Source: Isurus oxyrinchus (Eukaryota). From it: 64,000 nt of DNA. The stretch is taken from assembly GCA_026770705.1 (NCBI GenBank), contig JANJGN010000005.1, positions 187,488,001 to 187,552,000 of the forward strand, in the 5' to 3' direction. How positions within the stretch are numbered: position 1 is the first letter of the stretch; each line of letters opens with the position of its first letter. Made by a program: the position numbers and the translations under genes. The notes beneath the pieces are model-generated. The model saw only the letters and a program-made list of their open reading frames with translations, was not told the DNA's origin and did not search any database. Of this stretch, positions 1-64,000 are shown piece by piece.

Positions 1-475
1 TAGTTAAAAGATACCAAGGCCCTTCACTGGAGCATTATGAAACAAAATTTAATGCTGAGACGCTTAAGGGGATATTGGGGATGAGGTGATTTTAAGGAGC
101 ATCTTAAAGTAGGGGGGAGAGGTGGAGAGGTTTAGGAAGTAAATTCAAGATCTAATGAAGCGGAAAGCATCACTGGAAATGGTGCAACAATGAGAATTGG
201 GGGATTTGCAAAAGGCCAAAATTGGAGGAGTGCACAGACCTCAGAGGCTGGTAGGGCTGGACGAGGTTACAGATTACAGAAGGAGCAATGGATTTGAACA
301 CAAGAAGGAGAATTTTAAAATCAAGGAGGTGCTGGTCTAGGAGTCGTTATAGGTCAGCAAACAAAGAGGTAATAGGCGAACAGGACTTGGTGTGAGTAAG
401 GACACGGGTAGCTGAGTTTCAGATGAGTTAAAATTCAGGAAAGGCTCAAGGTGAGAGGCTAGCCTGGAGAGAACG
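1..475 (-). mobile_element. L2-type LINE 3' fragment
   Basis: Purine-rich reverse copy (TTTTAAGGAGCATCTTAAAG, GTAGGGCTGGA, GAGAATTTTAAAATCAAG) matching the + strand copy at 41080-41760. Confidence 0.7.
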
Positions 476-29480: not shown

Positions 29481-29655
29481 ACTGCTTCTACCTCATGCCA
29501 GGGCTGCCTCCTCCTTACCGGATGTCTGAAATGACCCATTCCATTGAATCCAAAGCCCGCTCAGTAACTGTGCAATAAAGTTTAGAGCCGCTCACGTCCA
29601 GCATAACACACTGGCGTGCCCCACACCTACAAGGCAAGTGAAGCACACTCGGGCG

Positions 29656-29785
29656 GAGAGTCATACGGACTCGAATCGTTAACTCTGTTTCTCTCTCCAC
29701 AGATACTGTCAGACCTGCTGAGCTTCTCCAGCGTTTTCTGTTTTTGTTTCAGATTTCCAGCTTCCGCAGTATTTTATTTTTTATA
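29656..29785 (+). mobile_element. Penelope-derived terminal-repeat fragment inserted between the two Harbinger genes
   Basis: GAGTCATACGGACTCGAATCGTTAACTCTG...CAGACCTGCTGAG; same family as 33126 and 43544 but lacks CTGATGA. Confidence 0.75.
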
Positions 29786-31784: not shown

Positions 31785-33125
31785 GGCAGCATTCAGGGCA
31801 CTGCCTCTGCTGCTTTTAAATCCCCCACTGGGTAGCCCTTGGACCTGCACTCAACAGGCTCCCGCCCTTAACTGGTCACCCAGTGTGAAATCGTGTGGGG
31901 AACACAATCTCGCCCGGGAACGGATTACACGTCTGCTTTGGGCCCACCAACTTGGCACACATGCCAAGCGTGAGATTCCGGCCCAGGTGTCAAGGAGATA
32001 GTAAGGCGATATTAAGGCATGTGACCAAAAGCTTGGTCAAGGTGGGAGGTTTTAAGGAGTCTTAAAGGAGGAGAGAGAGGCCAAAGTGTTTATGAATTTG
32101 TACTTTTGGTTTGTATTTGCATGGACTTAATGTTACATTAAATACTTTACTGTAATTTCCCTTTGGAGTTTTTTTACTATTGGTAATATATCTATGCAGT
32201 TTGTTTTTCTTACTATTACCAATTTGCATAGTAAATGTTATTGCCATTATTGAATCATTTATGTGAATCTGAATAAATGTGGTACATTTTCAACTTTGAA
32301 ATTATGAAAATATATAATCTTATTAAACAAAAAAAACGATTCATATCCATGCATCAGAAATGACAGAAAAAAAGAATTGATTTTATACTTCTTCAAATGG
32401 CGCATGGAGAATATTGAGTTAAGGATTGGCTCACATCTCAATGGCATGACCTGCCAACAGATTTTTAATGCAATGTGGAAAAAAAACAAATAATGCTTGA
32501 GTTTCCTAATCTGAAGTTTTATTTGTTTTTTTTTTGAGGAGCACTAGTTATGGGTTGTCTGTTCAGAATTTAAAATGTACACTGTGGGCAGGATGAATAA
32601 TAAGGTGGTCCAGATTCAACCCACAGTCCTTATGTTACACAGTTCCATTGAAGAGCCTAGTGGTTGATGAATAATGAGGTGTTAAATGGACCTATTTAGA
32701 CAAACAATTATCAGATTGGTATTTGAAAAGGTGAAAACAAGGCCATTAATCTGTTATTTAAATGTACATTATGTACAAGTAAGCATTACATGATAGACTG
32801 GTATTAAAATTATTCTGAATATATACATTTAACAGAAAACTCCTATAGCAATGGATGAAGTGAAAATATGGCTTTCAAGCGACAAATGTTTAATTAAGAT
32901 AACAACAATGCCATGCATTTATAGAGCAACTATAACATGGAAAAACGTCCCAACTTGCTTCTCGGAGGTGTTAAGAAAATGGATGATGAGCCAAAAACAG
33001 GGCTAATACAAAATGTGAGGAAGAGCTTGGTCACAGAGGTGGATTTCGAAGGCACGGCCACCAATGATGGGGGGGAGGAAGCGTGGAGTTTCAGGAAGAG
33101 AGAAAATAAGGGAAGGAAGTTGTAG

Positions 33126-33224
33126 CAAAAACAAAAATAGCTGGAAAAACTCAGCGGGTCTGACTGCATCTGCGTAGAGGAACACAGTTAACGTTTCAAG
33201 TCCATATGACTCTTCATCAGAACT
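33126..33224 (-). mobile_element. ~100-bp Penelope-derived mini-element carrying a hammerhead motif
   Basis: Flanked by GGAAGTTGTAG (33115-33125) and GGGAGTTGTAG (33225-33235); inserted in an L2 fragment; same ends as the copy at 43544. Confidence 0.8.
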
Positions 33225-33225
33225 G
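33185..33225 (-). ncRNA. Minimal type I hammerhead ribozyme motif
   Basis: CAGTT-CTGATGA-A-GAGTC-ATATG-GACTT-GAA-ACGT-T-AACTG: stem I CAGTT/AACTG, core CUGAUGA and GAAA, stem II GAGTC/GACTT, palindromic stem III ACGT. Confidence 0.7.
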
Positions 33226-33804
33226 GGAGTTGTAGACCTTGAGGAGGAAACAGAGACCAGTGTGGGGAGAGCTCATGGAAGGATTTAAATATAAAACTGA
33301 GAATTGTACATTTGAGGAATTGGGGAATCAACATACATTAGCAAGATGAGTGTGATTTAAAGCATGATAGGATATAGGCAGCAAAAGCGTATGGGTGGCA
33401 GAGGTTGGGAGGTCAGCCAGGATGGACTGGGATAATGGATTCCAGAGGCTCAACGGCAGATGGGCTGAGACAGGGATAGCAGCAGCTGATGTTGCCAAGG
33501 TAGAAATGGGTTGCCTGTCTGGCTTGAAGTTTAACTGAACACTGAGGTGGTGAGCAATCTGGTTCACTCCTGAGACAATGGGTAAGGAGGGGGATGAAAT
33601 TAGAAACATGGGTGCAGAGGGATAATGAGACCACTGACCTAAAGTTTGGCCAAAGAGGTAGGTTTTCAGGAGCATCTTGCAGGAGGAGAGAGGGTTAGGT
33701 TCACACCAAGATGTTCTTATTTCACAGATTTGTGCTTTTTATTTTTGTATTTGCATGGACTTGACTTTATTGCTAGAAAACCACGATGAAGAGAAACTAA
33801 GAAC

Positions 33805-33910
33805 ATTAGAAATAAAACCAGAAAGGGCTGAAAATATTCAGCGGGTCTGGCAACATCTGTGGACAGAGAAACAGAGTTAACATTTCAAGTCATGACCCTT
33901 CAATAGAACT
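33805..33910 (-). mobile_element. Degenerate Penelope-derived terminal-repeat fragment
   Basis: CAGCGGGTCTGGCAACATCTGTGGACAGAGAAACAGAGTTAACATTTC...GACCCTTCAATAGAACT. Confidence 0.7.
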
Positions 33911-33945
33911 CAACCCAGGAAAATTAGAAGCTGTATGATACCCAG

Positions 33946-34062
33946 GGGCGGAATTTTACACTGGTGGGATGTTACAATGCTGCTGAAGTCAGTGGACTTT
34001 TGAATGGCTCACCACATTTTACTCCCCCTCCCCTGACGCAATGGGGCCATAAAATTCCATCC
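33946..34062. mobile_element. 117-bp Harbinger-type MITE
   Basis: TIRs GGGCGGAATTTTA and (rc) GGATGGAATTTTA with CAG on both flanks (33943-33945, 34063-34065). Confidence 0.8.
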
Positions 34063-34619
34063 CAGGAGTGTATTTATTTATACATGTACGGTGCAGAGAA
34101 TTTACCAAGCCAACAACTGTTATGAGACAAAGATGAACCATTGCCAGTGTGGTAAAAACCCTGATATACACATGATGCCAATTAATCAGGAAGGGAACAT
34201 GTAGAACATGCCTCCTAATATTATATTGTTTTGCTCTTGATTGGCACTTAACGAGGCCTGAACAAGCAAAGCACTTTTTGGTAACTTTTTCTAGTTTTCA
34301 GTAAACACATCACAGTAATCCTCAAAGTAACATTAGATACAGATGACTATCCATTAATACTTTTCACTGGCATTGATGCATATTTATCCTTTCACTAAGA
34401 TTATCAAACAACATGAAAATATGGCCTAAGACCACTTTTAAAAATACCAACTGATTTACTAATAAATTTTGAATAATAAACAATTTCTGTAGATCAGTAT
34501 TTGCCCTAAACTTGTTTACTTTGCAACAGTTGATGAGTATTAACGACTATAAATTACACTAGCACTGGGCAGAATACAGTTACAGAAAGCACAATGCAAC
34601 AAGGGTTTGCAAAGCAACA

Positions 34620-34850
34620 CTCAGAACAAGGGGCAGGTCATTTAAGACTGAGAGGAGGAAGTTCTTCACTCGGAAGACGTTGAATCTTTGGAATTGTCTA
34701 CCCCAGAGGGCTGTGGAAGCTCAATCATTGAGCTTGTTCAAGACAGATAGCAATAGATTTCTGGAGATAGTGCAGGAAAGTGATGTCAAGGTAGAGGATC
34801 AGCCATGGTCAAATTGAATGGTGGAATGGCCTACTCCTGTTCCTATATGT
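34620..34850 (+). mobile_element. CR1 3' fragment
   Basis: TTTAAGACTGAGAGGAGGAAGTTCTTCACTC..AATCTTTGGAATTGTCTACCCCAGAGGGCTGTGGA. Confidence 0.75.
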
Positions 34851-36309
34851 CTCTAGACGTATGCTATTAACTAATCCAAACCTGATATCACACTTAATAG
34901 TGATGAAATGGGTTTTCTATGCCTTCTTTAAAACATTCATATAATTAACCCCAAAGCAATGGGTGCTGCAATGGTTTAGTATAATGTCCAAGTTCGTCCA
35001 GCACCTCCCTTCTCTGTTGGTTACAAGGTGGCCTATATTGGCTTGTGTTCTGCCAATAACATTGATTCTTAAATATCCTTTTGTTTTCAAATCCTCCCAT
35101 TGCCTCACCCTCCCCTCTCTCTGTAACCTCCCCCAGCCCTAAAAACCTTTTAGATATCTGTGCTCTGTGATGTTCCACTGCATTAGAAGTACTATGTAAA
35201 TGCAGGTTCTTGTAGTGTTAGGCTCAATGAGTTTGAGCAGCTGTATCTAGTTCCTCTGTGGCACGGACAAAACTGGCATTAATTTGGTAATCTCGGAGTG
35301 TTCACAAGGACAGCTGGTGTGCAAAAGGAAAAGCAAAGTTATTGCTGTATAAGATGGGGTACCCTTCTCACTGTTGGAATTAAGGCACATTTTTGAGGCA
35401 GGGTAGACGGAGCTTTGTCTGCAGCTGATCTGATGTTGATGTTGACTTCAGTGCCTCTTCCTAGTGCTGACTCCTTCATAGGCATAAAAAAAATCACTAA
35501 TTTTGTTCAACTTTTGATTCTGCGCCAGGGAGAACTATAAATTTTGGGAATGGCACCATGGAGTGAGCTTTATTCTCAAGATAACTTGTTCCTGCTAATG
35601 ATAGCTCGTAACTCCCATAGTCATTATTTGGACTCTATGTGGGATAAAACTGAGGTGCTCACCACAGGAGTTATGCGGTGTACGCACTCTTTGCAATTTT
35701 TTGAGACTTATTAATGTTTCAGTCAGTTCATACTTATATCAACTGCATCTGCATAAGAAATATTGCATTCAGTTCCGGCAACCTGGGAAAATTATGCTCC
35801 AAATGGGAACACATGGATCTTGTTGGAACACAATTATGGGTGAACTGGGTTTAAACTATGAGCTGCCAAATCCCAAAGTGGGAGCAACAGCTGTTCTTTT
35901 TTTAAAAGAAAAAATCACAGTTGCCAAATTCCCACCTTTTTTCTCCCTCGTCTTGGCTCTCCCACTTGACTTTTGTCCAAGGTCACTGTTACCATATGAC
36001 CTCTTTCATTTGGGAGTATGACGCACACCAAGTCAATGGACTCCTCTGTAACTGATGCCAGTGCCCATGTGTGGTCAACTGACTGGTAACATGGGCACAA
36101 CAGGCCAGAGATGCATACTGTTGTTCATCTTCACCTTCTCCCAGCCATGAAGGCTTCACTGAGGAGGACTGATTTCCAGCTTGTTGGAGAACTGGTGAAA
36201 CGTACTCAAGTCAGAGCATACAAGCTTGTATGACTGGTGCCAGCATAATTCGTAGGGAAATAACATCTTAATTTACAGCTTGTGGCTTTTCGTAGTAAAT
36301 TGATCAAGG

Positions 36310-36535
36310 AAAGAAAACTTTCATTTCCTTCACGCTTTTCATGACCTCAGATCATCCCAACGTGCTTTACAGCCAATGGAGTACTTCTGAAGTATAGTCA
36401 CCACTCTAATGTAGGAAAGTCAACTTGCACACAGCAAGCTCCCACAGACAGCAATGTGATAACGACCAGGTCATCTGTTTTTAGATGTTGGTTGAGAGAT
36501 AATATTGGCCATATCACTGGGGTGAACTCCCAGGC
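36310..36535 (-). mobile_element. Deu-domain SINE 3' part
   Basis: GCTTTACAGCCAATG..TGCACACAGCAAGCTCCCACAGACAGCAATGTGAT. Confidence 0.75.
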
Positions 36536-36559
36536 ACATTTTTTCTGAAGTCATCCTCA

Positions 36560-36925
36560 AGATGTGGGAGTCACCAGCAAGGCCAGCATTTTACCCATCC
36601 CTTATTGCCCTTGAGTAGGCGGTAGTGAACCGTTCCTCCATGCGAATTATAACTTTTTGTATATTTTTTGATACAACTGAGTGATTTGCTAGGCTGTTCC
36701 AGAGGGCAGTCAAGAGTCAACAACATTGCTGTGGTTCTGGAGTCATATGTAGGCCAGACCGGGTAAGGATGGCAGATTTCATTTCCTGAAGGACATTAGT
36801 GAACCAGATGGGTTTCTGCAACAATTCAGTAGTTTCATGGTGATCATTACTGATGCTAGCATTTTATCCTTTTCTTAATTTCAGATTTATTTAATTAAGT
36901 GAATTTAAATTCCCCACTGGTCCAG
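36560..36925 (-). mobile_element. Second tRNA-SINE family copy
   Basis: GAGTCATATGTAGGCCAGACCGGGTAAGGATGGCAGATTTC..ATTAGTGAACCAGATGGG. Confidence 0.75.
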
Positions 36926-37604
36926 TAAGATATCCGATTTCTTATCATAGTCTCAATTACTCTATGTAGGTCATAGAGAGGGATCATCAAGGGAGATCCG
37001 GGATCTTCAACATCCTGATTTGAAGTAATGGCTGGAGAAGAGTGTTAAATGTGGCTACACAAAACACGGAGGAAACAGACATTGAGCATTTTTCTCCATT
37101 CCTTATGGCTGAGTACAGTGTTGTATTGTTACGTAAATGTTTATGAGGCCTAATGGAAATGGGAAAGTATGGTGTATGTGGGATATCACTAGCTTGTAGA
37201 TTGTCTTGTGGTTTATCACAGGACTTTATTAAGGCCAGTTATATTTCAGTCCATAGCCCAAGGATACCATGAAAGATTTCATTTGATGATAAATCGTATT
37301 AAAATAGGCGTATAAGAAAATCTCTTTTGTCAGACTTACAAAGGAAGTTGTGTATTTGAAAAGTGTAAATCAATTTAGTACCCTCCAACTTTATAAAACA
37401 GTAACAAATACTTGCAAAACTGCATCTGAAAGATGACGTTATAATTAACTGATCTTGTGATGTTTGGTTGCCTATTTTTCAGAGGCGGTGAAACATATTA
37501 TTGTAGTTCAAATAATTAAGAAAATGTCTAGTGATGTGTGTCAATGTAAATATAAAACAGTTTTTAATTAGTTACTTTTTCCTAGAAGTCAGTCTTCTCT
37601 CAAG

Positions 37605-38300
37605 AAGTACGAATGAAGATGGATATTCAGCCCCTTGATCTTGGGTTTTATTAGATCATGGTTGACCTGTTTCTTCATTCCATCTACTTTCCTTGCTTCT
37701 GTAACCCCTAACCCCCATGCTTAACAAAAATATGTCAATCTCAGTTTTCAAATTTTCAGTTGGCCCCCAGCTTTAATTTGGTTTTTGGGGGAGAGAGTTC
37801 CAAATTTACACTACACTTTATGCCAAGTGCTCCCTGATATCACATCTGAGTGGCCTGGCTCTCATTTTGATGAACCCCTTGTTCTGGACTCCCCCCACCC
37901 CCCACCAGAGGCAATTATTTCTCTCTATCTCCCCAATCAAATCCTTTAATCATCCTAAACACCCCAGTTATATCACTCCTTAACCTGTTATTCCTGTGGG
38001 AATACAAGCCTAGTCAGTGTAACCTGTGCTCACAATTTAACCCCTTTAGCCCCAGTACCATTGTTGTGAATCCGCGCTGCACCCACCCCCAATGTTATTC
38101 TATCCTTCCTGACGTGTGGAGCTCAGGGCTGAAATCAGCCACTCCAGATGGTGTCTAAGCAGAGCTTTATAAAAGTAGAATAACTTCCCACCCCTTTGTA
38201 TTCAAGCCCCTTGTGATAAAGGTCATATTCCATTTGCGATCCCTATTATTTTTGTACTTGTTCACTAGCTTTTAGTGATGACTGTACTTGGACTTCTGAA
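37605..38300 (-). mobile_element. Old CR1 fragment
   Basis: Reverse CR1 3' signature (ATTCAGCCCCTTGA, GAGAGTTCCAAATT, TGTGAATCCGCGCTGCACC). Confidence 0.7.
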
Positions 38301-38794
38301 AAGCTCTTCTCTGTGCTAATTACATGTTCATTATTAAGTTACCTGTGCATAACAGGTTTGAATAATCTAGGCTGTAAAGGGCTGAATCCACCTTCCATTG
38401 GTAGATTAATAGCGGAGCAGAATTTCTCTCTACTCATGTGAGTCCACAGCTAACCGACTCAAGTTTCTTGTGGCATGAAACAATTAAACCATTGCTTATG
38501 GACTTATCACCACAGCATGGAAGGGAATTTGAGTGTTTAAATGCTGCTGATTATTGGGGCACAGGCATTATTTTCTTTTTGGCATTAAGCAACTGCAGAA
38601 GGGAGGCACAACAGTAAGGAGAGATTCCCCATTTACTGATTTGGTGTTTGTCCTTTCAGTAGAAATAAGGTTCAGAAGAGAATGGATTTTGTGGAAGGAA
38701 TAACAATGATGTTGTCACCACTCTGAAATTCACACGCGCAGAGTTTAATTTAGAAATCCAGAGTTGCTGTTTCTGTTTTTGTATTTGTTATTCC

Positions 38795-39025
38795 CACTGG
38801 CTACACCAGCATATGTTGCCCATCCCTAATTGCCCTTGAGCAGGTGGTGGTGAGCTGCCTTTTTTAACCACTGCAGTCCATGGGATGTAAGTACACCCAC
38901 TGTGCGGTGAGGAAGGGACTTCCAGGATTTTGACCCAGTGACAGTGAAGGAACGGTGATATGTTTCCAAGTCAGGATGGTGTGTGGCTTGGAGGGGAACT
39001 TCCAGGTGGTGATCTTCTCATGCAG
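38795..39025 (-). mobile_element. LINE 3' end sharing its tail with the second SINE family
   Basis: TTGCCCATCCCTAATTGCCCTTGAG followed by LINE-like GAAGGGACTTCCAGGATTTTGACCCAG. Confidence 0.65.
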
Positions 39026-39384
39026 GTGAAGTCTGTAAATGGTACACACTGCTACCCCTGTGCCTTTGCCCTGCTCCTCCACAAGGTGCGCTATACCTTA
39101 GTGATAGACTCGGCATTTAAATCCATGAAGGGCCATGAAGTTGCTACATTCACCCGTTTGTTAGCGACTATACACGCCAGAAAACATTAAGGCTGGTGCA
39201 TTCTGCCGTAAGTGAATTTCTAACGCTGTGATAAATATTGATTACTCCCAATCAGCCTCTCTAGCTATGAAAAATTAATTTTACAAGTGTGGACTTACAT
39301 TCCTTCAAAATTTAATCATTGGAGATTATTTTAAAAATTTCATCTTTATTTGTCTCTTTTACTTATCACACCCTCTCTCTCTAT

Positions 39385-40197
39385 TGTAGCTCTGTTGGGA
39401 ACATTCTCACCAATGAGTTAGAAGATTATAGGTTCAAGTCCCACTCAAGCACTTGAGCACAAAATCTAGGCTAACACTCACAGTGCACTACTGAGGGAAT
39501 ACTGCACTCTCATAAGTGCATTCTTTTGACTTTAAGCCAAGGTCCTGTCTGCCCTCTCTGGGTACTATTTCTGAAGAAAAGGGCAGTTATCTCTGGTGTC
39601 ATAGCTAATATCAACATCACAAAAATATATTGTCTGACCATTACCACTATCCTGTTTTTGGGAGCTTGCTGTGCACAAATTGGCCACTACTCTTCCTACC
39701 TTACAATATTGACTACACTACAAAAAGTATCTCATTGACAGTAAAGTGCTTTGTGATTCCTGGTGACCCTAAAAGGTGCAATAGCAAAGCAAATCTTTTT
39801 TATTTCTTTTGCTTTCCATGCATTATTTTACAATTATTCTAATTTATATTGGTGGAGTGCTGCACTGTCTGTGGTGCTGTTTCTCAGATGAGACATTACA
39901 CCAAGGCCCAGTCTTCCCTCTCAGGTGGATGTAAAAGATCCCATGGCACTACTTTGAATATGAGCAATGGAGTTTTCCCTTGTGTCTTGATCAATTTTAT
40001 CCCTCAACCAGCATTGCTAAAACATATTATTTGGACATTATCACATTGCTGTTTGGACCTTGGTGAGCGCAAATTGGTTGTCATGGTTCCTACATTACGA
40101 CAGTGACTACCCTTTCAAAAAGTACTTGATTAGCTGTAAAGCGCCTTGAGACATCCTGAGGTCTTGAAGGGCACAGCATAGGTGCAAGTCTTTCTTT
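39385..40197 (+). mobile_element. Two adjacent Deu-domain SINEs (~39385-39800 and ~39850-40197)
   Basis: GGTTCAAGTCCC head in the first; CTCTCAGGTGGATGTAAAAGATCCCATGGCACTA core in the second. Confidence 0.78.
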
Positions 40198-40462
40198 CTT
40201 GGCTGAAGAACATAAGGTTCCAAGCCTTAGGCCCAGTGATCAATAGAAGAATAATTTAGAACCACTGATCTCATGTATAAGGCAATGGAGAAGGTTTCCA
40301 CGTACAAATGTTGGAATGTGAAGGCATGGGAGGAAGTATGGATCACTAATACATTGCAGGGAGCTTTTCATGGTGTGCAGAACTTGTCGGAGTGAATGAC
40401 AAGCTAGGGTATTTCTGCAGCAGCAAAATGCTTTGATGAAGATGAACTTCTAATTACCTTTC

Positions 40463-41069
40463 CTTGAATCTTGCTGATATGAGGGACATGTTGCTGAAGA
40501 TTTTCTTTCTTGCACTCATCAGGACAAACACAAGAATGCCAAATTTCAAATGCTTACAACAATTGATATGACAGGAGAAAAGGATGCTAATTGGTTGGCA
40601 AGCTGAGTCTGGCTTGGCCGTGGAGAACCCATTGGAGAAGTATCGGCTCTCCAAGATCCCAGGTATTTCAAAAGAGATGCAAGAATTGAACATATTCCTT
40701 TTGTTTGCAGAGAATGGGTCCCTGTGTATGAATGTATGTCACTTCTAGCAAGTGTAAATGAGCCGCATTCTGAGTTCAACTGATTATCTTAAATTGGTTG
40801 TTGTTGTTGTAGGTATTGGCACACTCAAGATTGTTCAGCAGGTGCTGCCAAACCACGGAATCACATCTAACAGTAAATGTTTTGTTTTAGGATTGTAAAA
40901 GTGGGCTAGTTGAGTACATTCCGTACTCTGCCTATTAGGAACAATTGAAGGAACATGCTGCTTGATTCGATCAGCCAATCACTTGGATGTATGCCTACGT
41001 TGTCTTTGTTCTGATGAATGCAAGATGAAATGCTTCAACAACATGTCTCTCTTTTCAGCAATATTCAAG
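40463..41069. mobile_element. ~600-bp element bounded by ~70-bp inverted repeats that each contain a hammerhead-like motif (Penelope-like)
   Basis: 40463-40533 is a diverged reverse complement of 41000-41069; both carry CTGATGA-(G/A)TGCAAGA-..GAAA-N-(G/T)CTTC. Confidence 0.65.
41007..41040 (+). ncRNA. Minimal hammerhead ribozyme motif, second family (decayed)
   Basis: TGTT-CTGATGA-ATGCAAGAT-GAA-ATGCTT-C-AACA: stem I TGTT/AACA, intact core, UUC cleavage triplet. Confidence 0.55.
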
Positions 41070-41084
41070 TCCTGTACTAGCAAG

Positions 41085-41760
41085 CAACTGTTTAATTACC
41101 ACTCCATCATCAAGACTGCACCTACTTGCATCTCTGTAACATCGTCCACCTCTGCCCTGCCTCAGCTCATCTGCTGCTGAAACCCTCATCTATGCCTTTG
41201 CTACCTGTAGACTCAGCTATTCTAATGCTCTCCTGGCTGGCCTTCCTTTTTACAAGCTCCACAAACTCGAGCTCATCCAAAGTTCTATTGCCCATATCCT
41301 GCTCCTGTTTACTACCCATCCTCCCTGTCTTCACCGATGTACATTGGCTTCAGGTCACGGCAATGCCGCGATTTTAAAGCTCTTGGCCTTGTTTTCAAAT
41401 CCCTCTGCAGCCTCACCCCTTCCCTTTCTCTTCAGCTAACCTTCAGCCCTACAAACCTCGAAGAACACTGCGCTCTTCCAATTCTGAAATCATGTGAACC
41501 CTGATTTTAATGGCTGCACAATGGCTGGATGTGCCATTGTGGTACCTGGGCCCTAAGCTCTGGAAATCCGTTCCTAACCCTCTCTATCTCTCTACCTCTT
41601 CTTTCGTTCTTAAAAGTGCTCCTTAAAACCTACCTCTTGAACAAGTTAGCTGCCCTAACATCCCTTTACATGGCTTGGTGTTAAATCTTGTTTGATAATG
41701 CACCCGTAAAGCATGGGTTGTATGTTTTACTCCATTAATTTCACTATATAAATCAGGTTG
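41085..41760 (+). mobile_element. L2-type LINE 3' fragment
   Basis: CTGCTGAAACCCTCATCTATGCCTTTG..TATTCTAATGCTCTCCTGGCTGG, ACATTGGCT, CTCCTTAAAACCTACCTCTT. Confidence 0.78.
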
Positions 41761-43077
41761 CTATCCTAGATTTGTCCATTTTGTATGTTGATGGCATTGA
41801 ACACACTCAAGCTGTTTGTTTCTGCTGCTTTGCAGTCTGATTTCATTTTCCAGTCTACATGGCATCGAGACCAGCAGGTTAAAATGACTGTTTCATCCTG
41901 TTAATCTAAGAGACGGAATGGAGAAAGGAGGGTCTGCCCAGAATAGGGAAATGAATTGTCGTTTAACATTCTGTATTAAATAAAGCACCGAGCCCTTTTA
42001 AATCATCCTTTTCTAGGAAACGTAAAATAAATCAGTGCGTGTACCAAGGGAGATGAATTTAAGAGCGCATGGAGAGTTAGAAGTTTTATGCTGGATATAG
42101 AATTTCCCAGTAATTAAATGCATGATTTTTCTCAAACCTTGAGTAATTACGTAACAGTCATTAAACCTCTTGTGGGAGTGTTATTAGTTACCAAGGACAT
42201 GGAGCATATTGGTGGTAATGTTCACATTGACAGCAGCTGCCATTACAACCGGTCCCTCTCAGCCACTAAGCAGAATAAACCCTTGCCATAAAACTTAAGC
42301 AATATGTATTAAAAAGTAGTGCCGGATACCAAGGAGTGAGTTCAAACTGTAATTTAAACCTGGGCATTCAGGGGACAGTTAGAATTCCACTGCAGTGTTA
42401 CTCTTGGAAAACTCTTCAGTTTGAAAACTGCGCCACTGCCTTTATTCTCCAGACAAAACTTGCTGCCTATTAAATCCAAGCAGTTGGCAGCAGAATATTT
42501 GTTCAGCGGAATGGGAATGAATCCAAGGTCAGTGGTTCTAAATTCATCAAAAATAATTCAGCCAGTGGCATAAGCTTTGAGTCTAGAATTCAGGTGGTCT
42601 GTAACGGCTGGACATTCAGCCTTTTTTGACTTTTTGAACCACTCGGGTTTAACTAACCCTGTGCCAGTCAAACTACCGAGAAAATACAAATTATGCTGTT
42701 GGCTTTCTTGATGGGAAGAGGGTTGTGGATTTTTGTGCCTATTAATTCCTGAGGATTGGAAGTCTTTTTTTTTTACTTTGAGTACCCAGTGTCCATATCG
42801 AATGGCAGGGCAAACCTACTTCTACTCTCACTATTCTCACAATCCTGCATATTCTTACTATCCTGCATGAAATCTCCACTTCACAGACTTGCACCAAATT
42901 TCTGGAATGACGTTGCGAGTTTGCATCATTTGGGTTTTTGGGTTGGTGAAATTTAACTCAAGGTTGAGATGTGCCTATTTTTGCTGAAATTCATTTCACA
43001 TTGGGGTCCCAATGCGTACAGAAAGGAGACCATCATTTAGTCAGGGCTAAATTCAAGCCAAGGTCTCAAAATCAGAA

Positions 43078-43425
43078 AAAGAAAAACTTGCATTTCTAAA
43101 GCCTCTTTCGCAGCCATCTTAGAGGGCTTTACAGTCAATGAAATACTTTTGAAGTGTAGACACTGTAGGATTGAGGGATAAATATTGGCCAGGTATTGGG
43201 GGTGGCTCCCTGCTCCTCTTCGAAATAGTACCTTGGATCTTTTACATCCACCTGAGAGAGCAGACGGGTTTAATATCTGATCCAAAAGACAGCATCGTCA
43301 ACAGTGTAGCACTCCCTCGGTAGTGCACTGGAGTATCAGCCCTGATTTTTGTGCTCAAGTACTGGAGTGGAACTTGAAATCAGAACCTTGTGACTCAGAG
43401 ACCAGCATACTACCAACGGAACCAC
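43078..43425 (-). mobile_element. Deu-domain SINE
   Basis: GGATCTTTTACATCCACCTGAGAG core, tRNA head near 43370-43420. Confidence 0.8.
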
Positions 43426-43451
43426 CTCAAAACTGGAGGTGAAAGATTCAA

Positions 43452-43790
43452 GGTCATAGAAACAGGAGTAGGCCATTCAGCCCCTCAAACCATTGCTGAT
43501 CTGCGACCTAACTCCATATAACCATCTTTGCCTTAATTTCATTCAAAAACAAAAATAGCTGGAAAAACTCAGCAGGTCTGATAGCATCTGTGGAGAGGAA
43601 GACAGAGTTAACATTACGAGTCTGTATGACTCTTCATCAGAACTTAATTTCATTGCTTACCAAAACTTTTAACAATCTCAATTTTAAAATTAATGATTGA
43701 TCCAGCATCAATTGCCATTTGTGGAAGGGAGTTCCAAAGTTCTCCAATCTTTTGTGTGAAGAAGTGTTTCCTAATTTCACCCCAGAAAGG
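43452..43790 (-). mobile_element. CR1 3' fragment (host of the 43544 mini-element)
   Basis: CATAGAAACAGGAGTAGGCCATTCAGCCCCTC...GTGTGAAGAAGTGTTTCCT. Confidence 0.7.
43544..43642 (-). mobile_element. ~100-bp Penelope-derived mini-element with a mutated hammerhead (GAA>GTA)
   Basis: Perfect 12-bp duplication CTTAATTTCATT at 43532-43543 and 43643-43654; inserted in a CR1 3' fragment. Confidence 0.82.
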
Positions 43791-48279: not shown

Positions 48280-48482
48280 TGGGAAGTTTTGGAAATTCTC
48301 ATCACATCTAGCAGCATCTGCGCAGAGAGGAACAGAGGTCATTGACCCTTCCTCAGAACTAGTGCATATCATGGACCTGTAGTGTTGACTCAGTTTCTCT
48401 TTCCACAGATGCTGTCTGACCTGCCAAGTATTTCCAACATTTCCTGTTCATATTTCAGGTTTGCAGCATCTGCAGGACTTTG
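48280..48482. mobile_element. Old inverted pair of Penelope-derived terminal repeats
   Basis: GCAGCATCTG..GAGAGGAACAGAG facing CTCAGTTTCTCTTTCCACAGATGCTG. Confidence 0.6.
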
Positions 48483-49217
48483 TTCTCCCACTATATGCTC
48501 CAAGTGTGGGAGCTAGTTTCAATTTAGAATGAGAAAATATTTATCACTCGATGCAACGTGTAATTTTTCTGTTAACAAAGCCCACTTGTGTAGATATAAG
48601 TAGCGCATTATTGCAGGTGAATTGGTTAGTGCTAATTTATTGGAAGGTTTTGTCATTTTTACACTTGGAAGTGAAACCCAGGAGCTATGCTCCAATGGAA
48701 TATGTCACTGTTAGTTTAAGATATTCTCATTTATACATAGGATTGTTGTTTGTGGTGCCTGTGAGGTTCAAGTCTTATGGAGTTTGCTGCCCAGATACTG
48801 CACAAGGCCAGGTTCAAAGAAGCAGAGCTGGTTGCAAAATATGAAAGACCAAGTTGTGTGTAATTGTCTGACAAAGCTGTGATTATAAAGTGTATCATAC
48901 CAAAACCCAAGCTTTCGTTGGGCTTTATAAATAGAGGCATAGAGTACAAAAGCCAGGAAGCTGTACAAAACAATTAAACCCTACAGTGACTATGTTTTTC
49001 AATTCTGGGCACCCGAAAGATGTGAAGGAGAGGGTTGCAGGGGTGAAGGGGGAGGGGGAATAAGGGGCCCGGAAACAGAAGAAGCACCAGGGTCCGTTAT
49101 TCCTCTCCCTGGCCGTGCCTCTCAGTCCTTAACACTGCAGTACACTCCTATGTGATTTTGAAGTGAAAGAGTTGGAGTGACGCACAGTGTGTTGTTCCTT
49201 ATTTAAAATAAGTTGAA

Positions 49218-52775: not shown

Positions 52776-53580
52776 CCCAAATTCCAATGCAGCATCCTGA
52801 AGGAGTTGCTCAGTGTAGGAATCCACACAGAGATCTGCGAATAGGATCAGCACAGAAGACATGCCCCCTCTTTACAGCACGAGCTGCCATTCAGTAAGCT
52901 TAAAGGTCCAGTCTGAATATCAGTGAATGGGTGAGTGGATGCGGTGGGTTGGGGTGGGTGGGGTGGGTGAGGTGGATGGGTGCGTAAGTGGGTAGGATGA
53001 GTAAGTGGGTAGGCGGTGAGGTGGGTAAGTGGGTAAGGGGGTGTTTGGGTCGGGGTGTAGTCGGGCTGGGTCGAAGAGGTAGTCAGGTGGCCAGGGAGGG
53101 TAGTTGGGGTGGGTCAGTGTGTCAACGGTGGTGGGGGCGGGTCAAATGATGTAGTTAGGGGATCGAGAGGGGAGTTGGGGGGGGTGATTGGGAGGGTCAG
53201 TTGTGTAGGTACCCAGATGTCACAGTAGGTTTTAATCAGTCTAACATTTCCTGGGTAGCTATTCAGGTAAGTACTGTGGAACTGTCCCAAGGGGAGAATT
53301 TTCCCCATGTTGGGTGGGCCATGCAGTAGTGGGCATTGACCCAATCACCGCCATGTGATTGGGTCCGTGCCGCCATTTTAAGTGGGCGGGCCAATTAAGG
53401 CCTGCCCAGCGTCGTTCACGACTCCCATGGATAGCGGGAGTGGGCAGGCGGCGCTGGGCATGCTCAGACCACCAGGTCCAGTAGCGACCCAGTGGCCTGT
53501 TTAAAGGAAGGCCTGACAGCCTTTGCAAGGCTGCTCACAATGGCCGGGAGAAGAGCACAACAAAGGGGCAATGTGACTGA

Positions 53581-54020
53581 AGCACGTCCGGAGGGTAGGG
53601 CATCGGGACAGGCCAGACCGGAGGGTAGGGCATCGGGGCAGGCCAGACCGGAGGGTAGGGCATCGGGGCAGGCCAGGCTGGAGGGTAGGGCATCGGGGCA
53701 GGCCAGGCTGGAGGGTAGGGCATCGGGGCAGGCCAGGCTGGAGGTTAGGCTAGCGGGGCAGGCCAGGCTGGAGGGTAGGGCATCGGGGCAGGCCAGGCTG
53801 GAGGGTAGGGCATTGGGCCAGGCCAGACCGGAGGGTAGGGCATCGGGGCAGGCCAGGCCGGAGGGTAGGGCAATGGGGCAGGCCAGACCGGAGGGTAGGG
53901 CATTGGGGCAGGCCAGACCGGAGGGTAGGGCATCGGGGCAGGCCAGACCGGAGGGTAGGCTATCGGGGCAGGCCAGGCCGGAGGGTGGGCCATCGGGGCA
54001 GGCCAGGCCGCAGGGTAGGC
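53581..54020 (+). repeat. 30-bp coding minisatellite, ~14.5 units
   Basis: Unit GGCCAGACCGGAGGGTAGGGCATCGGGGCA, encoding (ARPEGRASGQ)n in frame with the Myb-like ATG. Confidence 0.97.
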
Positions 54021-54359
54021 CAGGGGACAGTGTACTGTACGTTTCTCCGACGAGTGCCTAGCTGCCCTCCTAGAGGAGGTGGCAGCGCGGCGGGAGGTCC
54101 TTCTTCCGAGGGACGGGAGGCAGAGTCCTGTCCACCTGACCAAACGTGTGCGGGAGGAGGTGGCTGAGAGTGTGAGCTCCCACGATGTGGTGCGGCGCAC
54201 ATGGCTGCAGTGCCACAAAAGGTTCAACGATCTCCTGCGCTCAGGAAGGGTGAGTACCAAATTGCCTCAAGTCACTTAATGCAGCCGTCACCCTTTCACC
54301 CCAACCCACCCCTCCCTGCCCTCGGCAACTCTGAGTATAGTAATGTCATTGAATCCCTC

Positions 54360-59784: not shown

Positions 59785-60955
59785 TCCGAAAGCAGAATGC
59801 ACTGCAGATGCTGGAAATGTGAAATGAAAGCAGAAAATGCTGGAAATACTCAGCAGGCCATGCAGCACCAGCGGAGAAAAACAGAGTTAACATTTCCGTC
59901 TGACGAACTTTCGTCAGAATTGGAAAAAGAAAAATGAAGAAACGTTGGAGGTTTTGCGCAAGTACAGAGGCAGGGAAAGGTAGGAGGAGGTAAAGAACGT
60001 GAGTGAAGGTCTGTGATGGGGTGGAGGGCAGGAGAGATTAAATGACCAAAGGGAGGACGGTGCAAGGCAAAAAGAGATGGAAATGGGACAAGTAAAGAAA
60101 CAAAAGATGGGTCTAAAGGGGGTGTAAATGGGAAAGGCAGAATCATCAGCAGCTGTTGTCTAAAATATTTTCTTTAAAAACACACAAAAAGTAATGTGGG
60201 CAAAGGTTATGATCTGAAATTGTTGAGTCTGAAAGGCTGTAATGTACCTAATCAAAAGATGAGGTTCTGTTCTTGAGTTTATGTTAGAGCTTCAGGGGAA
60301 CAGTATTGGAGACTGAGAACAGAGAGGTCAGAGTGGGAGTGAAGCAGAGAATTAAAATGACAGGCGACTGGAAGTACAGAGATAAAAACAAAAAACTGCG
60401 GATGCTGGAAATCCAAAACAAAAACAGAATTACCTGGAAAAACTCAGCAGGTCTGGCAGCATCGGCGGAGAAGAAAAGAGTTGACGTTTTGAGTCCTCAT
60501 GACCCTTCGACAGAAGGGTCATGAGGACTCAAAACGACAACTCTTTTCTTCTCCGCCAATGCTGCCAGACCTGCTGAGTTTTTCCAGGTAATTCTGCTTT
60601 TGGACTGGAAGTACGGTGTCTCACTTGCGGACTGAATTAAGAGCCAAGTGATCACTCAAGCTGCTTTTGGTCTCCTTGATGTAGAGTAGACTGCATTGTG
60701 AAGGGTGTGATACTAAATTGAAAGAAATGGAAGTGAATCATTGTTTCACCTGGGAGGAGTGTTTGGGACCTTAGAGAGTGAAAAGGGAGGAGCTAAAAGG
60801 GTGGGTGTTACCTCCTCTGTGTTTGCATGGGAAGAGGGGGAGGGATTAGGTTGCAGCATAAAATCTACCCCCTCCCTCACCTCTCTTTCAGCACGCCAAA
60901 CGGACTGCTCCCTTCGCAACACTCTGGTCCACTCCTCAATTACTCCCAACAGCCC
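59785..60955 (-). mobile_element. Old Penelope-like retroelement fragment (GIY-YIG endonuclease remnant and 3' repeat)
   Basis: Minus-strand remnants GPKHSSQVKQ*FTS..NLV..QCSLLYIKETK and EQNLIF*LGTLQPFRLN; an inverted piece PSLTSLSARQTDCSLRNTLVHSS on + at ~60865-60945; terminal repeat with CTGACGA...GAAA at 59885-59920. Confidence 0.75.
60378..60602. mobile_element. Fold-back Penelope-type insertion with 84-bp inverted arms
   Basis: Arms 60425-60508 and 60513-60596 (two mismatches seen), loop GACA; GACTGGAAGTAC duplicated at 60366-60377 and 60603-60614. Confidence 0.9.
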
Positions 60956-61560: not shown

Positions 61561-62240
61561 GGGCAGGATTTCCCCCCCCCCCAACCTTCGGCCGGGCGCA
61601 GCGGGGTGGACCCGGGATCGGCCGCCCAAGTGTCCCCCGCTGGCCATCAGTCCCCAGCCGCGATTTCACGCTGGTTGTCCAATTACCAGCCAGCCAACGG
61701 TGAAACGCGGGCTGATAACCTCAGCGCTGCCGGGGTGGGGAGGGGAAAGAGTGCGGGCGCTGAAGTTTGTGGAGGGGGGGGGGGCGGCGGTGGTGGGGGG
61801 GGGTTGGGGCTGGGGGTGCACTCAGTGGAAGCGCCCTCTCCCTGAAGGCACAGAGCTGCCTCGGAGAACTGAAGATTTCTAACGTGAGAAATAAAAACGA
61901 TTGAAAATAAGGAAAACTTCTCCCCACCTGTGACTCTGTCACATGAACAGGGACACGTGAAATACGAGGTTTAAAAGATTTTTATTGTTTTTTTTTTAGC
62001 CACCGTTTGAAACCTCATCCCGCCCGAGGGTGAGCTTTCCTTAAAAATGCAAAGGACGCCTGGCCTGTTCGCCCACCCGTCTGTCAACGCAGCGGCTGGA
62101 GGGGCAGCCAAAAATTCAGTTGAATGAATTGATTAAGGGCTTTAATAGCCCTCTCAGTTGTCGGCAGGCGGACTCCCGCCTCTTGCACTCACCCGCCGAT
62201 CGAAAGATCCAGAGAGTGCGCAATGAGGTCAGGACGCTGG
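61561..62240. mobile_element. Non-autonomous Harbinger-type element (left TIR and body), running into the satellite
   Basis: Starts GGGCAGGATTTCC, GC-rich with retained CpGs, interrupts a CR1 3' fragment. Its right part resembles the reverse complement of the 27811-27890 subterminal region. Confidence 0.7.
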
Positions 62241-64000
62241 CCCGATATCACTCCTGTCAGGGTCGGGCGTGTGCCCGATATCACTCCTGTCCGGGTCGGG
62301 CACTCACCCGATATCACTCCTGTCCGGGTCGGGCGTGTACCCGATATCACTCCTGTCCGGGTCGGGCACTCACCCGACATCTCTCCTGTCCGGTTCGGGC
62401 GTGTACCCGATATCACTCCTGTCCAGTTTGGGCGTGTACCCGATATCACTCCTGTCCGGGTCGGGCACTCGCCCGATATCACTCCTGTCCGGGTCGGGCA
62501 CTCACCCGATATCACTCCTGTCCGGGTCGGGCACTCACCCGATATCACTCCTGTCCGGGTTGGGCGTGTGCCCGATATCTCTCCTGTCCGGGTCAGGCGT
62601 GTGCCCGATATCACTCCTGTCCGGGTCAGGCGTGTGCCTGATATCTCTCCTGTCCGGGTCGGGCACTCACCCGATATCTCTCCTGTCCGGGTCAGGCGTG
62701 TGCCCGATATCACTCCTGTCCGGGTCGGGCGTGTGCCTGATATCTCTCCTGTCCGGGTCGGGCACTCACTCGATATCACTCCTGTCCGGGTCGGGCGTGT
62801 ACCCGATATCTCTCCTGTCCGGGTCAGGCGTGTGCCCGATATCACGCCTGTCCGGGTCGGGCGTGTGCCTGATATCTCTCCTGTCCGGGTCGGGCACTCA
62901 CTCGATATCACTCCTGTCCGGGTCGGGCGTGTACCCGATATCACTCCTGTCCGGGTCGGGCGTATGCTCGATATCACTCCTGTCCGGGTCGGGCACTCAT
63001 CCGATATCACTCCTGTCCAGGTCGGGCGTGTGCCCAATATCACTCCTGTCCGGGTTGGGTGTGTGCTCGATATCACTCCTGTCCGGGTCGGGCACTCACC
63101 CGATATCACTCCTGTCCGGGTCGGGCGTGTACCCGGTATCTCTCCTGTCCGGGTTGGGACACTCACCCGATATCACTCCTGTCCGGGTCGGGCGTGTGCC
63201 CGATATCACTCCTGTCCGGGTCGGGCACTCACCCGATATCACTCCTGTCCGGGTCGGGCACTCACCCGATATCACTCCTGTCTGGGTCGGGCACTCGCCC
63301 GATATCACTCCTGTCCGGGTCGGGCATGTGCCCGATATCACTCCTGTCCTGGTCTGGCGTGTGCCCGATATCACTCCTGTCCGGGTCGGGCGTGTGCCCG
63401 ATATCTCTCCTGTCCGGGTCGGGCGTGTACCCGGTATCTCTCCTGTCCGGGTCGGGCACTCACCCGATATCACTCCTGTCCAGGTCGGGCGTGTGCCCAA
63501 TATCACTCCTGTCCGGGTCGGGCGTGTACCCGATATCACTCCTGTCAGGGTCGGGCGTGTACCCAATATCACTCCTGTCCGGGTCGGGCGTGTACCCGAT
63601 ATCTCTCCTGTCCAGGTCGGGCGTGTACCCGGTATCTCTCCTGTCCGGGTCGGGCGTGTACCCGATATCACTACTGTCCTGGTCAGGCGTGTGCCTGATA
63701 TCACTCCTGTCCGGGTCGAGCACTCGCCCGATATCACTCCTGTCCGGGTCGGGCGTGTGCTCGATAGCACTCCTGTCTGGGTCGGGCACTCACCCGATAT
63801 CACTCCTGTCCGGGTCGGGCGTGTGCTCGATATCACTCCTGTCCGGTTCGGGCACTCACCCGATATCAGTCCTGTCCTGGTCGGGCGTGTGCCTGATATC
63901 ACTCCTGTCCGGGTCGGGCACTCACCCGATATCACTCCTGTGTGGGTCGGGCGTGTACCCGATATCACTCCTGTCCGGGTCAGGCGTGTACCCGATATCA
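62241..64000. repeat. 33-bp tandem satellite, ~53 units, continuing past the window end
   Basis: Unit CCCGATATCACTCCTGTCCGGGTCGGG(CGTGTG|CGTGTA|CACTCA|CACTCG). Confidence 0.98.

Follow-up and report, generated by a model that had tools for sequence, protein, structure and literature searches.

The window analysed here, 64,000 nucleotides of Isurus oxyrinchus contig JANJGN010000005.1 (positions 187,488,001 to 187,552,000), carries two short insertions at about 33 kb and 43.5 kb, each with a hammerhead ribozyme motif (Table 1). Both are very probably short insertions of the pseudo-long terminal repeat (pLTR) of an abundant, endonuclease-bearing (EN+) Penelope-like element (PLE). An earlier reading, made from the letters of the window (hereafter the sequence-only reading), had described two independent insertions with matching starts, each between target duplications of 11-12 bp, and both observations hold. 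The units are 99 nt (33 kb) and 101 nt (43.5 kb) long, are 87% identical, and start with CAAAAACAAAAATAGCTGG on the plus strand; the last two bases of the 43.5-kb unit are common to its target-site duplication. The host fragments are presumably L2 and CR1, as had been proposed. In an empty-site check, the unit and one duplication were removed and the joined flanks were searched with nhmmer. At the 43.5-kb site, 104 of 127 matches cross the joint, restoring an uninterrupted host repeat, and at the 33-kb site one of six matches crosses it, weakly. A flank-pair blastn search for empty sites returned self matches only.

Table 1. Features of the Penelope-like pLTR family in the 64-kb window (positions within the window)
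Feature	Position	Strand	Basis
Short Penelope-like pLTR insertion, from stem I (element +1) as far as the first tail site (+99)	33126..33224	-	sequence
Target-site duplication of 33-kb unit, left copy (11 bp)	33115..33125	+	
Target-site duplication of 33-kb unit, right copy (11 bp, 1 mismatch)	33225..33235	+	
Second short pLTR insertion; first two bases overlap the duplication (microhomology)	43544..43644	-	sequence
Target-site duplication of 43.5-kb unit, left copy (12 bp)	43532..43543	+	
Target-site duplication of 43.5-kb unit, right copy (12 bp, exact)	43643..43654	+	
Minimal type I hammerhead of 33-kb unit	33186..33224	-	sequence, descriptor match, family covariation
33-kb hammerhead: stem I	33224-33221 / 33189-33186	-	
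33-kb hammerhead: CUGAUGA	33220-33214	-	
33-kb hammerhead: extra A	33213	-	
33-kb hammerhead: 5-bp stem II		-	
33-kb hammerhead: GAAA	33197-33194	-	
33-kb hammerhead: palindromic ACGU stem III		-	
33-kb hammerhead: predicted cut	33190/33189	-	
Degenerate hammerhead of 43.5-kb unit, GUAA for GAAA (base 43616)	43606..43644	-	
Long-tail copy, pLTR family, about +4 to +134	29649..29781	+	
Older short-tail copy, pLTR family	33805..33936	-	
Old head-to-head pair, pLTR family	48288..48484	both	
Older long-tail copy with upstream extension, pLTR family	59789..59928	-	
Young head-to-head pair with a CUGUCGA core, one arm long-tailed and the other short-tailed	60380..60608	both	

The hammerhead of the 33-kb unit is the only exact match to a minimal type I descriptor in the window, and 30 shuffled windows gave none. 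The unit starts at its stem I, as had been noted from the letters; the 43.5-kb copy fails the descriptor at its GUAA core. No match to an Rfam hammerhead model was obtained for either the window or the 33-kb unit, a null result that is uninformative because the hammerhead is of such minimal form. Single-strand folding of the isolated motif was no better than that of shuffles (z -0.3 to -1.1). Across 77 copies of the family, stem positions pair in 88% of cells compared to 21-46% in slid controls, and stem II has eight double changes at its first pair and three pair types at its second, all counts that related rows inflate. Covariation anticipated in stems I and II was found as compensatory change in stem II and barely in stem I (three cells only).

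The full descriptor is intact in 9 of 110 sampled copies. The core reads CUGUCGA or CUGUUGA in 54 of the 110, including the youngest subfamily, in which the open reading frame (ORF) is intact. Here CUGUCGA replaces CUGAUGA (L121-L140, e.g. L123:3711-3750), and the young head-to-head pair of the window has the same core. A substitution at this place in the core should weaken cleavage. Because U stands there in about half of the sampled copies, the element has spread with a probably weakened ribozyme. The prevalence of these cores fits both insertion that does not need cleavage and poor cutting: hammerhead mutants of the anole Poseidon element PAc are reported to insert still (PMC11167929), and hammerheads of metazoan PLEs are described as cutting poorly (PMC4209133).

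Assignment to a PLE is based on the sequence in which relatives of the units are embedded. Element positions are counted with the initial base of stem I as +1, which puts the predicted cut between +35 and +36. Genome-wide, 20 of the 29 closest relatives extend upstream by 51 to >1100 nt in common 3' untranslated region (UTR)/ORF sequence, and this sequence encodes the end of a reverse transcriptase (RT)-GIY-YIG protein. Three of the remaining relatives turn back as an inverted copy, three reach just 10-14 nt further, and three end at stem I; a further tail of ~38 nt is present on 13 of the 29. A protein search for ORF-bearing copies gave 57,507 first-look candidates, of which 150 were scored, and 20 long-frame loci were examined. 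Eight of these have the layout pLTR-ORF-3' UTR-pLTR, and the end of the 3' pLTR lies at +95..112 in 16 loci and at +136..146 in four. A 926-aa frame between two pLTRs matches RVT_1 (E 2e-7) and has a weak match to GIY-YIG (E 9e-4, under the Pfam cutoff) with the GIY-YIG motif visible. A CX2-5CxxC linker between RT and endonuclease is given as a trait of Neptune and Nematis elements (PMC8557442), and the CX4CxxC linker of this frame, which has that form, points to an element of the Neptune/Nematis type. Full-length copies belong to a younger subfamily whose pLTR is about 82% like the window units, while truncated ORF pieces are joined to copies that resemble the 33-kb unit more closely (93-95%). 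The family also includes partial tandems and inverted 5' copies, as EN+ PLEs do. The proposal that a Penelope RT/GIY-YIG protein mobilised the units is thus borne out to the extent that the same sequence is the pLTR flanking an RT and GIY-YIG ORF.

Several long-frame loci have features of their own. Long insertions at L123, L125, L127, and L133 have an inverted 5' arm of several kb (ORF and 3' UTR) beside a full-length copy. The segment L123:3794-3886, which runs from element +84 almost to the first Met, has a CAG/GT resembling a splice donor at +84 and a possible acceptor right ahead of the ATG. These point to a putative 5' UTR intron of ~90 nt, as in other PLEs; no such joint was among the RNA contigs listed. 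Upstream of both pLTRs at L121, the young subfamily repeats 10 nt of its stem II/GAAA segment immediately ahead of +1, perhaps through a template-jump error that became fixed.

Copy ends were surveyed without selection in 160 evenly spaced 10-kb stretches (1.6 Mb) from the larger contigs. The sample contained 179 pLTR hits, or ~557,000 genome-wide by extrapolation. Among strong hits, 121 of 129 3' ends fall at +95..109 or +130..139, with peaks at about +100 and +137 (about 35 nt apart). In the anole element PAc, the tail is reported to be bounded by two adjacent internal RT start sites (PMC11167929). The 3' end common to both window units coincides with the first of these two sites, and it is ordinary because an optional tail and RT start site are already known.

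The 5' ends have a second kind of regularity. Among 89 evaluable non-inverted survey copies, 47 have their 5' end at least 80 nt upstream, 29 at -12..+16, six between, and seven further in. The 29 short units in 1.6 Mb correspond to about 18 per Mb, or roughly 90,000 genome-wide (extrapolated). Old subfamilies can mimic a boundary, and therefore the count was redone on young copies (66 non-inverted copies, less four at locus edges). Of these 62, 40 extend beyond -80, 15 start at -10..+10, and seven start in the 105 nt around (binomial p 1e-7). In a base-level pass, 16 of 56 young copies had the 5' end inside 60 nt; by eye, 10 of them are at 0..+16, one is at +32, four lie between -12 and -28, and the last reflects an internal deletion. 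Inverted arms behave similarly, with 13 of 27 starting at -5..+15 in a finer pass by eye. The nearest relatives retrieved with an internal probe, 31 loci (20 of 28 new places and 11 others) read by eye as 26 independent insertions, comprised six inverted copies, six starts at -2..+12, and 14 copies that begin at least 87 nt upstream. Of 44 short copies, 12 have target duplications scoring at least 9 (null 11%), and these place the ends at -18 to +15. One of 43 listed ends lies at +34..38, so the pile-up is apart from the cleavage site. The 5' pile-up at stem I is real but ragged, from about -10 to +16. No statement of such a pile-up was found in the open-access PLE texts consulted.

These counts divide what had been claimed for the boundaries of the units. 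Matching boundaries beyond random truncation are supported at the 5' end, where the pile-up is non-random (p about 1e-7), and the match at the 3' end reflects a known tail site. On fixed unit length and ends, which a genome-wide check of the 99-mer was to address, the survey gives a real but ragged 5' pile-up (29 of 89 evaluable non-inverted copies) and two 3' sites. Internal pLTR duplications restart mostly at about -8..+14 (by eye and pattern-biased, among the 100 of 183 matches listed), which agrees alike with RT running off an RNA end and with RT stopping at a structure. One identical duplication joint occurs at about ten places (C13, C5, C8), which suggests a propagated variant or a segmental repeat.

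Head-to-head (inverted) pairs are frequent in the family, with 34 in the 1.6-Mb sample. Among the 29 pairs that can be classified, 26 combine a short-tail arm with a long-tail arm, against an expectation of half (p 8e-6). A tail at one end only has been described in EN+ PLEs (PMC8557442; PMC3846280), and this count therefore puts a number on a known layout. Such pairs would form by priming from both nicked strands, each at a different tail site; the same joints also result when a folded-back strand primes itself.

A discrete ribozyme short interspersed element (SINE) or minimal retrozyme, which the sequence-only reading had proposed, would have short units transcribed and copied as a family of their own. 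Their density, their own duplications, and their non-random 5' start are in keeping with this, and vertebrate retrozymes are reported to derive from pLTRs (bioRxiv 10.64898/2026.07.22.740005). A low-resolution tree (91 columns) built from 27 short and 48 long copies bears on it from both sides. The short label shows mild clustering (as low in 6 of 500 shuffles) and is commoner among old subfamilies, but clustering can arise in old subfamilies from lost upstream homology. No short-only lineage is present in the tree: the label changes 16 times, and well-supported branches force at least six of these changes. Over 91 nt, one short copy does not differ from five long copies, and the nearest row of both window units is a long copy. 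A nearest-neighbour comparison of short versus long copies gave 20 versus 16 (including a self-duplicate), which favours neither side. Short copies have ragged ends, use the two tail sites equally often (14/14), as non-inverted copies do overall, and include core variants of several subfamilies. The window units are monomers between target duplications rather than tandem, they start 35 nt before the cut site rather than running from cut to cut, and ends at the cut site and intact cores are as rare as given above. With short copies interleaved among long ones, and their sequence being the pLTR of an autonomous element, a separate SINE or retrozyme is very improbable. Small tandem arrays of 35-67 bp units from the hammerhead part of the pLTR do occur elsewhere (C24:5015413-5015684, C12:142976662-142976893, C5:51744822-51745015, and C3:156314058-156314215). 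Non-LTR retrozymes are defined by at least two tandem hammerhead units (bioRxiv 10.64898/2026.07.22.740005), and these arrays would be closer to that definition than the window units.

We favour a reading that combines pLTR identity, internal RT start at the first tail site, and run-off near the front of the hammerhead, and we give it as a whole a probability of about 0.65. The run-off step is tentative, at slightly less than even odds: RT would start internally at the tail site of the 5' pLTR and run off the RNA 5' end near +1. The cDNA would then join the target, often via 1-4 nt of microhomology. The mRNA would start near +1 from an internal pLTR promoter, so that the 5' pLTR would yield the units as strong-stop-like products; long and tandem copies would then depend on read-through RNA or on RT jumping to the 3' pLTR. 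Short units are probably dead ends because they are without sequence downstream of the RT start sites. For PAc, GIY-YIG nicking, internal RT initiation at two adjacent sites, and extension of both strands are reported, with sequence 3' of the start sites needed and hammerhead cleavage not needed (PMC11167929). An internal pLTR promoter is described for a Chlamys element (PMC8557442), and a transcription start with an internal promoter lies inside the pLTR of Drosophila virilis Penelope (PMC2377424).

Several results weigh against run-off at +1. Assembled RNA contigs cover the pLTR, but no RNA 5' end, strand, or splice can be read from them. Of the eight full-length copies that retain the whole 5' pLTR, none begins exactly at +1, and every one reaches at least 7 nt upstream. 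The 5' boundary is soft because the starts of several young copies, short or inverted, lie between -3 and -29. A consistent extra G, a possible trace of a capped 5' end, was not seen in copies by eye. The D. virilis transcription start is about 120 nt before helix I when the available accounts are summed (PMC4209133; PMC2377424). In old subfamilies, homology can seem to end at stem I because upstream sequence diverges; a target duplication with the score given above is present in only 12 of 44 short copies.

The main rival to run-off keeps the same element and places at the hammerhead a stop or fold-back point, set by RNA fold or bound protein on a longer read-through RNA, so that an RNA end there is not required. 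Ends ragged on either side of +1 agree with it, as does the clustering of fold-back and internal restarts at about -8..+14, and the anole protein is reported to bind this region and assist hammerhead folding (PMC11167929). The folding result for the isolated motif speaks against it. Hairpins also usually stall RT at their 3' side, not at the 5' edge. A structural or protein-bound stop is unlikely, if clearly ahead of a boundary set by splicing, in which the pyrimidine tract and AG at +1/+2 of long copies would be a 3' splice site and short copies would come from spliced RNA. A D. virilis intron is described as ending at the 5' end of helix I (PMC4209133), but here target duplications adjoin the unit directly with no upstream exon between, several copies keep an A+1 and G+2 that do not come from the target, and no GT..AG joint was among the RNA contigs listed (weak evidence); splicing is very improbable. 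At L167:4163-4350 (minus), +1..+35 is duplicated so that the predicted cut site is joined to stem I. This copy prompted the idea of an RT jump onto the 3' end of hammerhead-cleaved RNA. About 28 of about 34 independent pLTR duplications break at +35..39 (by eye), but a similar number break at the control positions +47..66 and about 10 at +14..30. As these control breaks are similar and a 4-nt microhomology accounts for several breaks, the jump is unsupported, and nothing marks L167 as a special class.

The rest of the window places the two units in context. The window as a whole holds nine pieces of the pLTR family, most with different ends, including two head-to-head pairs (Table 1). Tandem arrays at 62095-64000 and 53500-54100 have periods of 33 bp and 30 bp. 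As elements, the units are ordinary, being two of roughly half a million pLTR pieces in the genome (extrapolated). Their value is as a footprint that bears on the formation of partial tandems in PLEs and on the role of the hammerhead. The stem I pile-up and the near-strict pairing of short and long tails are two measurable numbers for PLE mechanism; the 5' pile-up is the one unexplained regularity of what are otherwise short pLTR insertions of a known kind. A broader scheme, speculative and unlikely as it stands, is that PLEs replicate by an LTR-like strong stop. RT would start at the tail sites of the 5' pLTR, run off stem I, and jump to the 3' pLTR for the ORF. The ~90,000 short units, head-to-head pairs, and internal pLTR duplications would be failed or misplaced jumps, and one protein dimer would prime both target strands, one per tail site.

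The family can be compared with four known systems, as far as the published accounts available describe them. It is like EN+ PLEs of the Neptune/Nematis type (PMC8557442; PMC3846280) in its RT with a C-terminal GIY-YIG domain and CX2-5CxxC linker, and in having partial tandems, 5' truncation, an inverted 5' copy, solo pLTRs, target duplications, and a 30-40 bp tail at one end only. The 5'-end pile-up at stem I is a feature found here, and those accounts, in the parts available, contain no statement of one. Minimal type I hammerheads of metazoan PLEs (PMC4209133) share the short stem I, the extra base after A9, the G10.1-C11.1 pair, and the palindromic stem III, and they are likewise mostly single motifs of truncated elements; the youngest subfamilies here differ in their CUGUCGA or CUGUUGA cores. 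Non-LTR retrozymes (bioRxiv 10.64898/2026.07.22.740005) are similar in PLE pLTR origin, type I hammerhead, and dispersed monomers, whereas each window unit stands alone, has its 3' end at a tail site, and lies between target duplications. The anole PAc element (PMC11167929) resembles the family in having two adjacent RT start sites that define the tail, a hammerhead just upstream, and no ends at the cleavage site. The PAc ORF starts inside the hammerhead, whereas the first Met here is about 175 nt past stem I, and PAc has no strand bias between start sites in vitro, whereas inverted pairs here nearly always have one of each.

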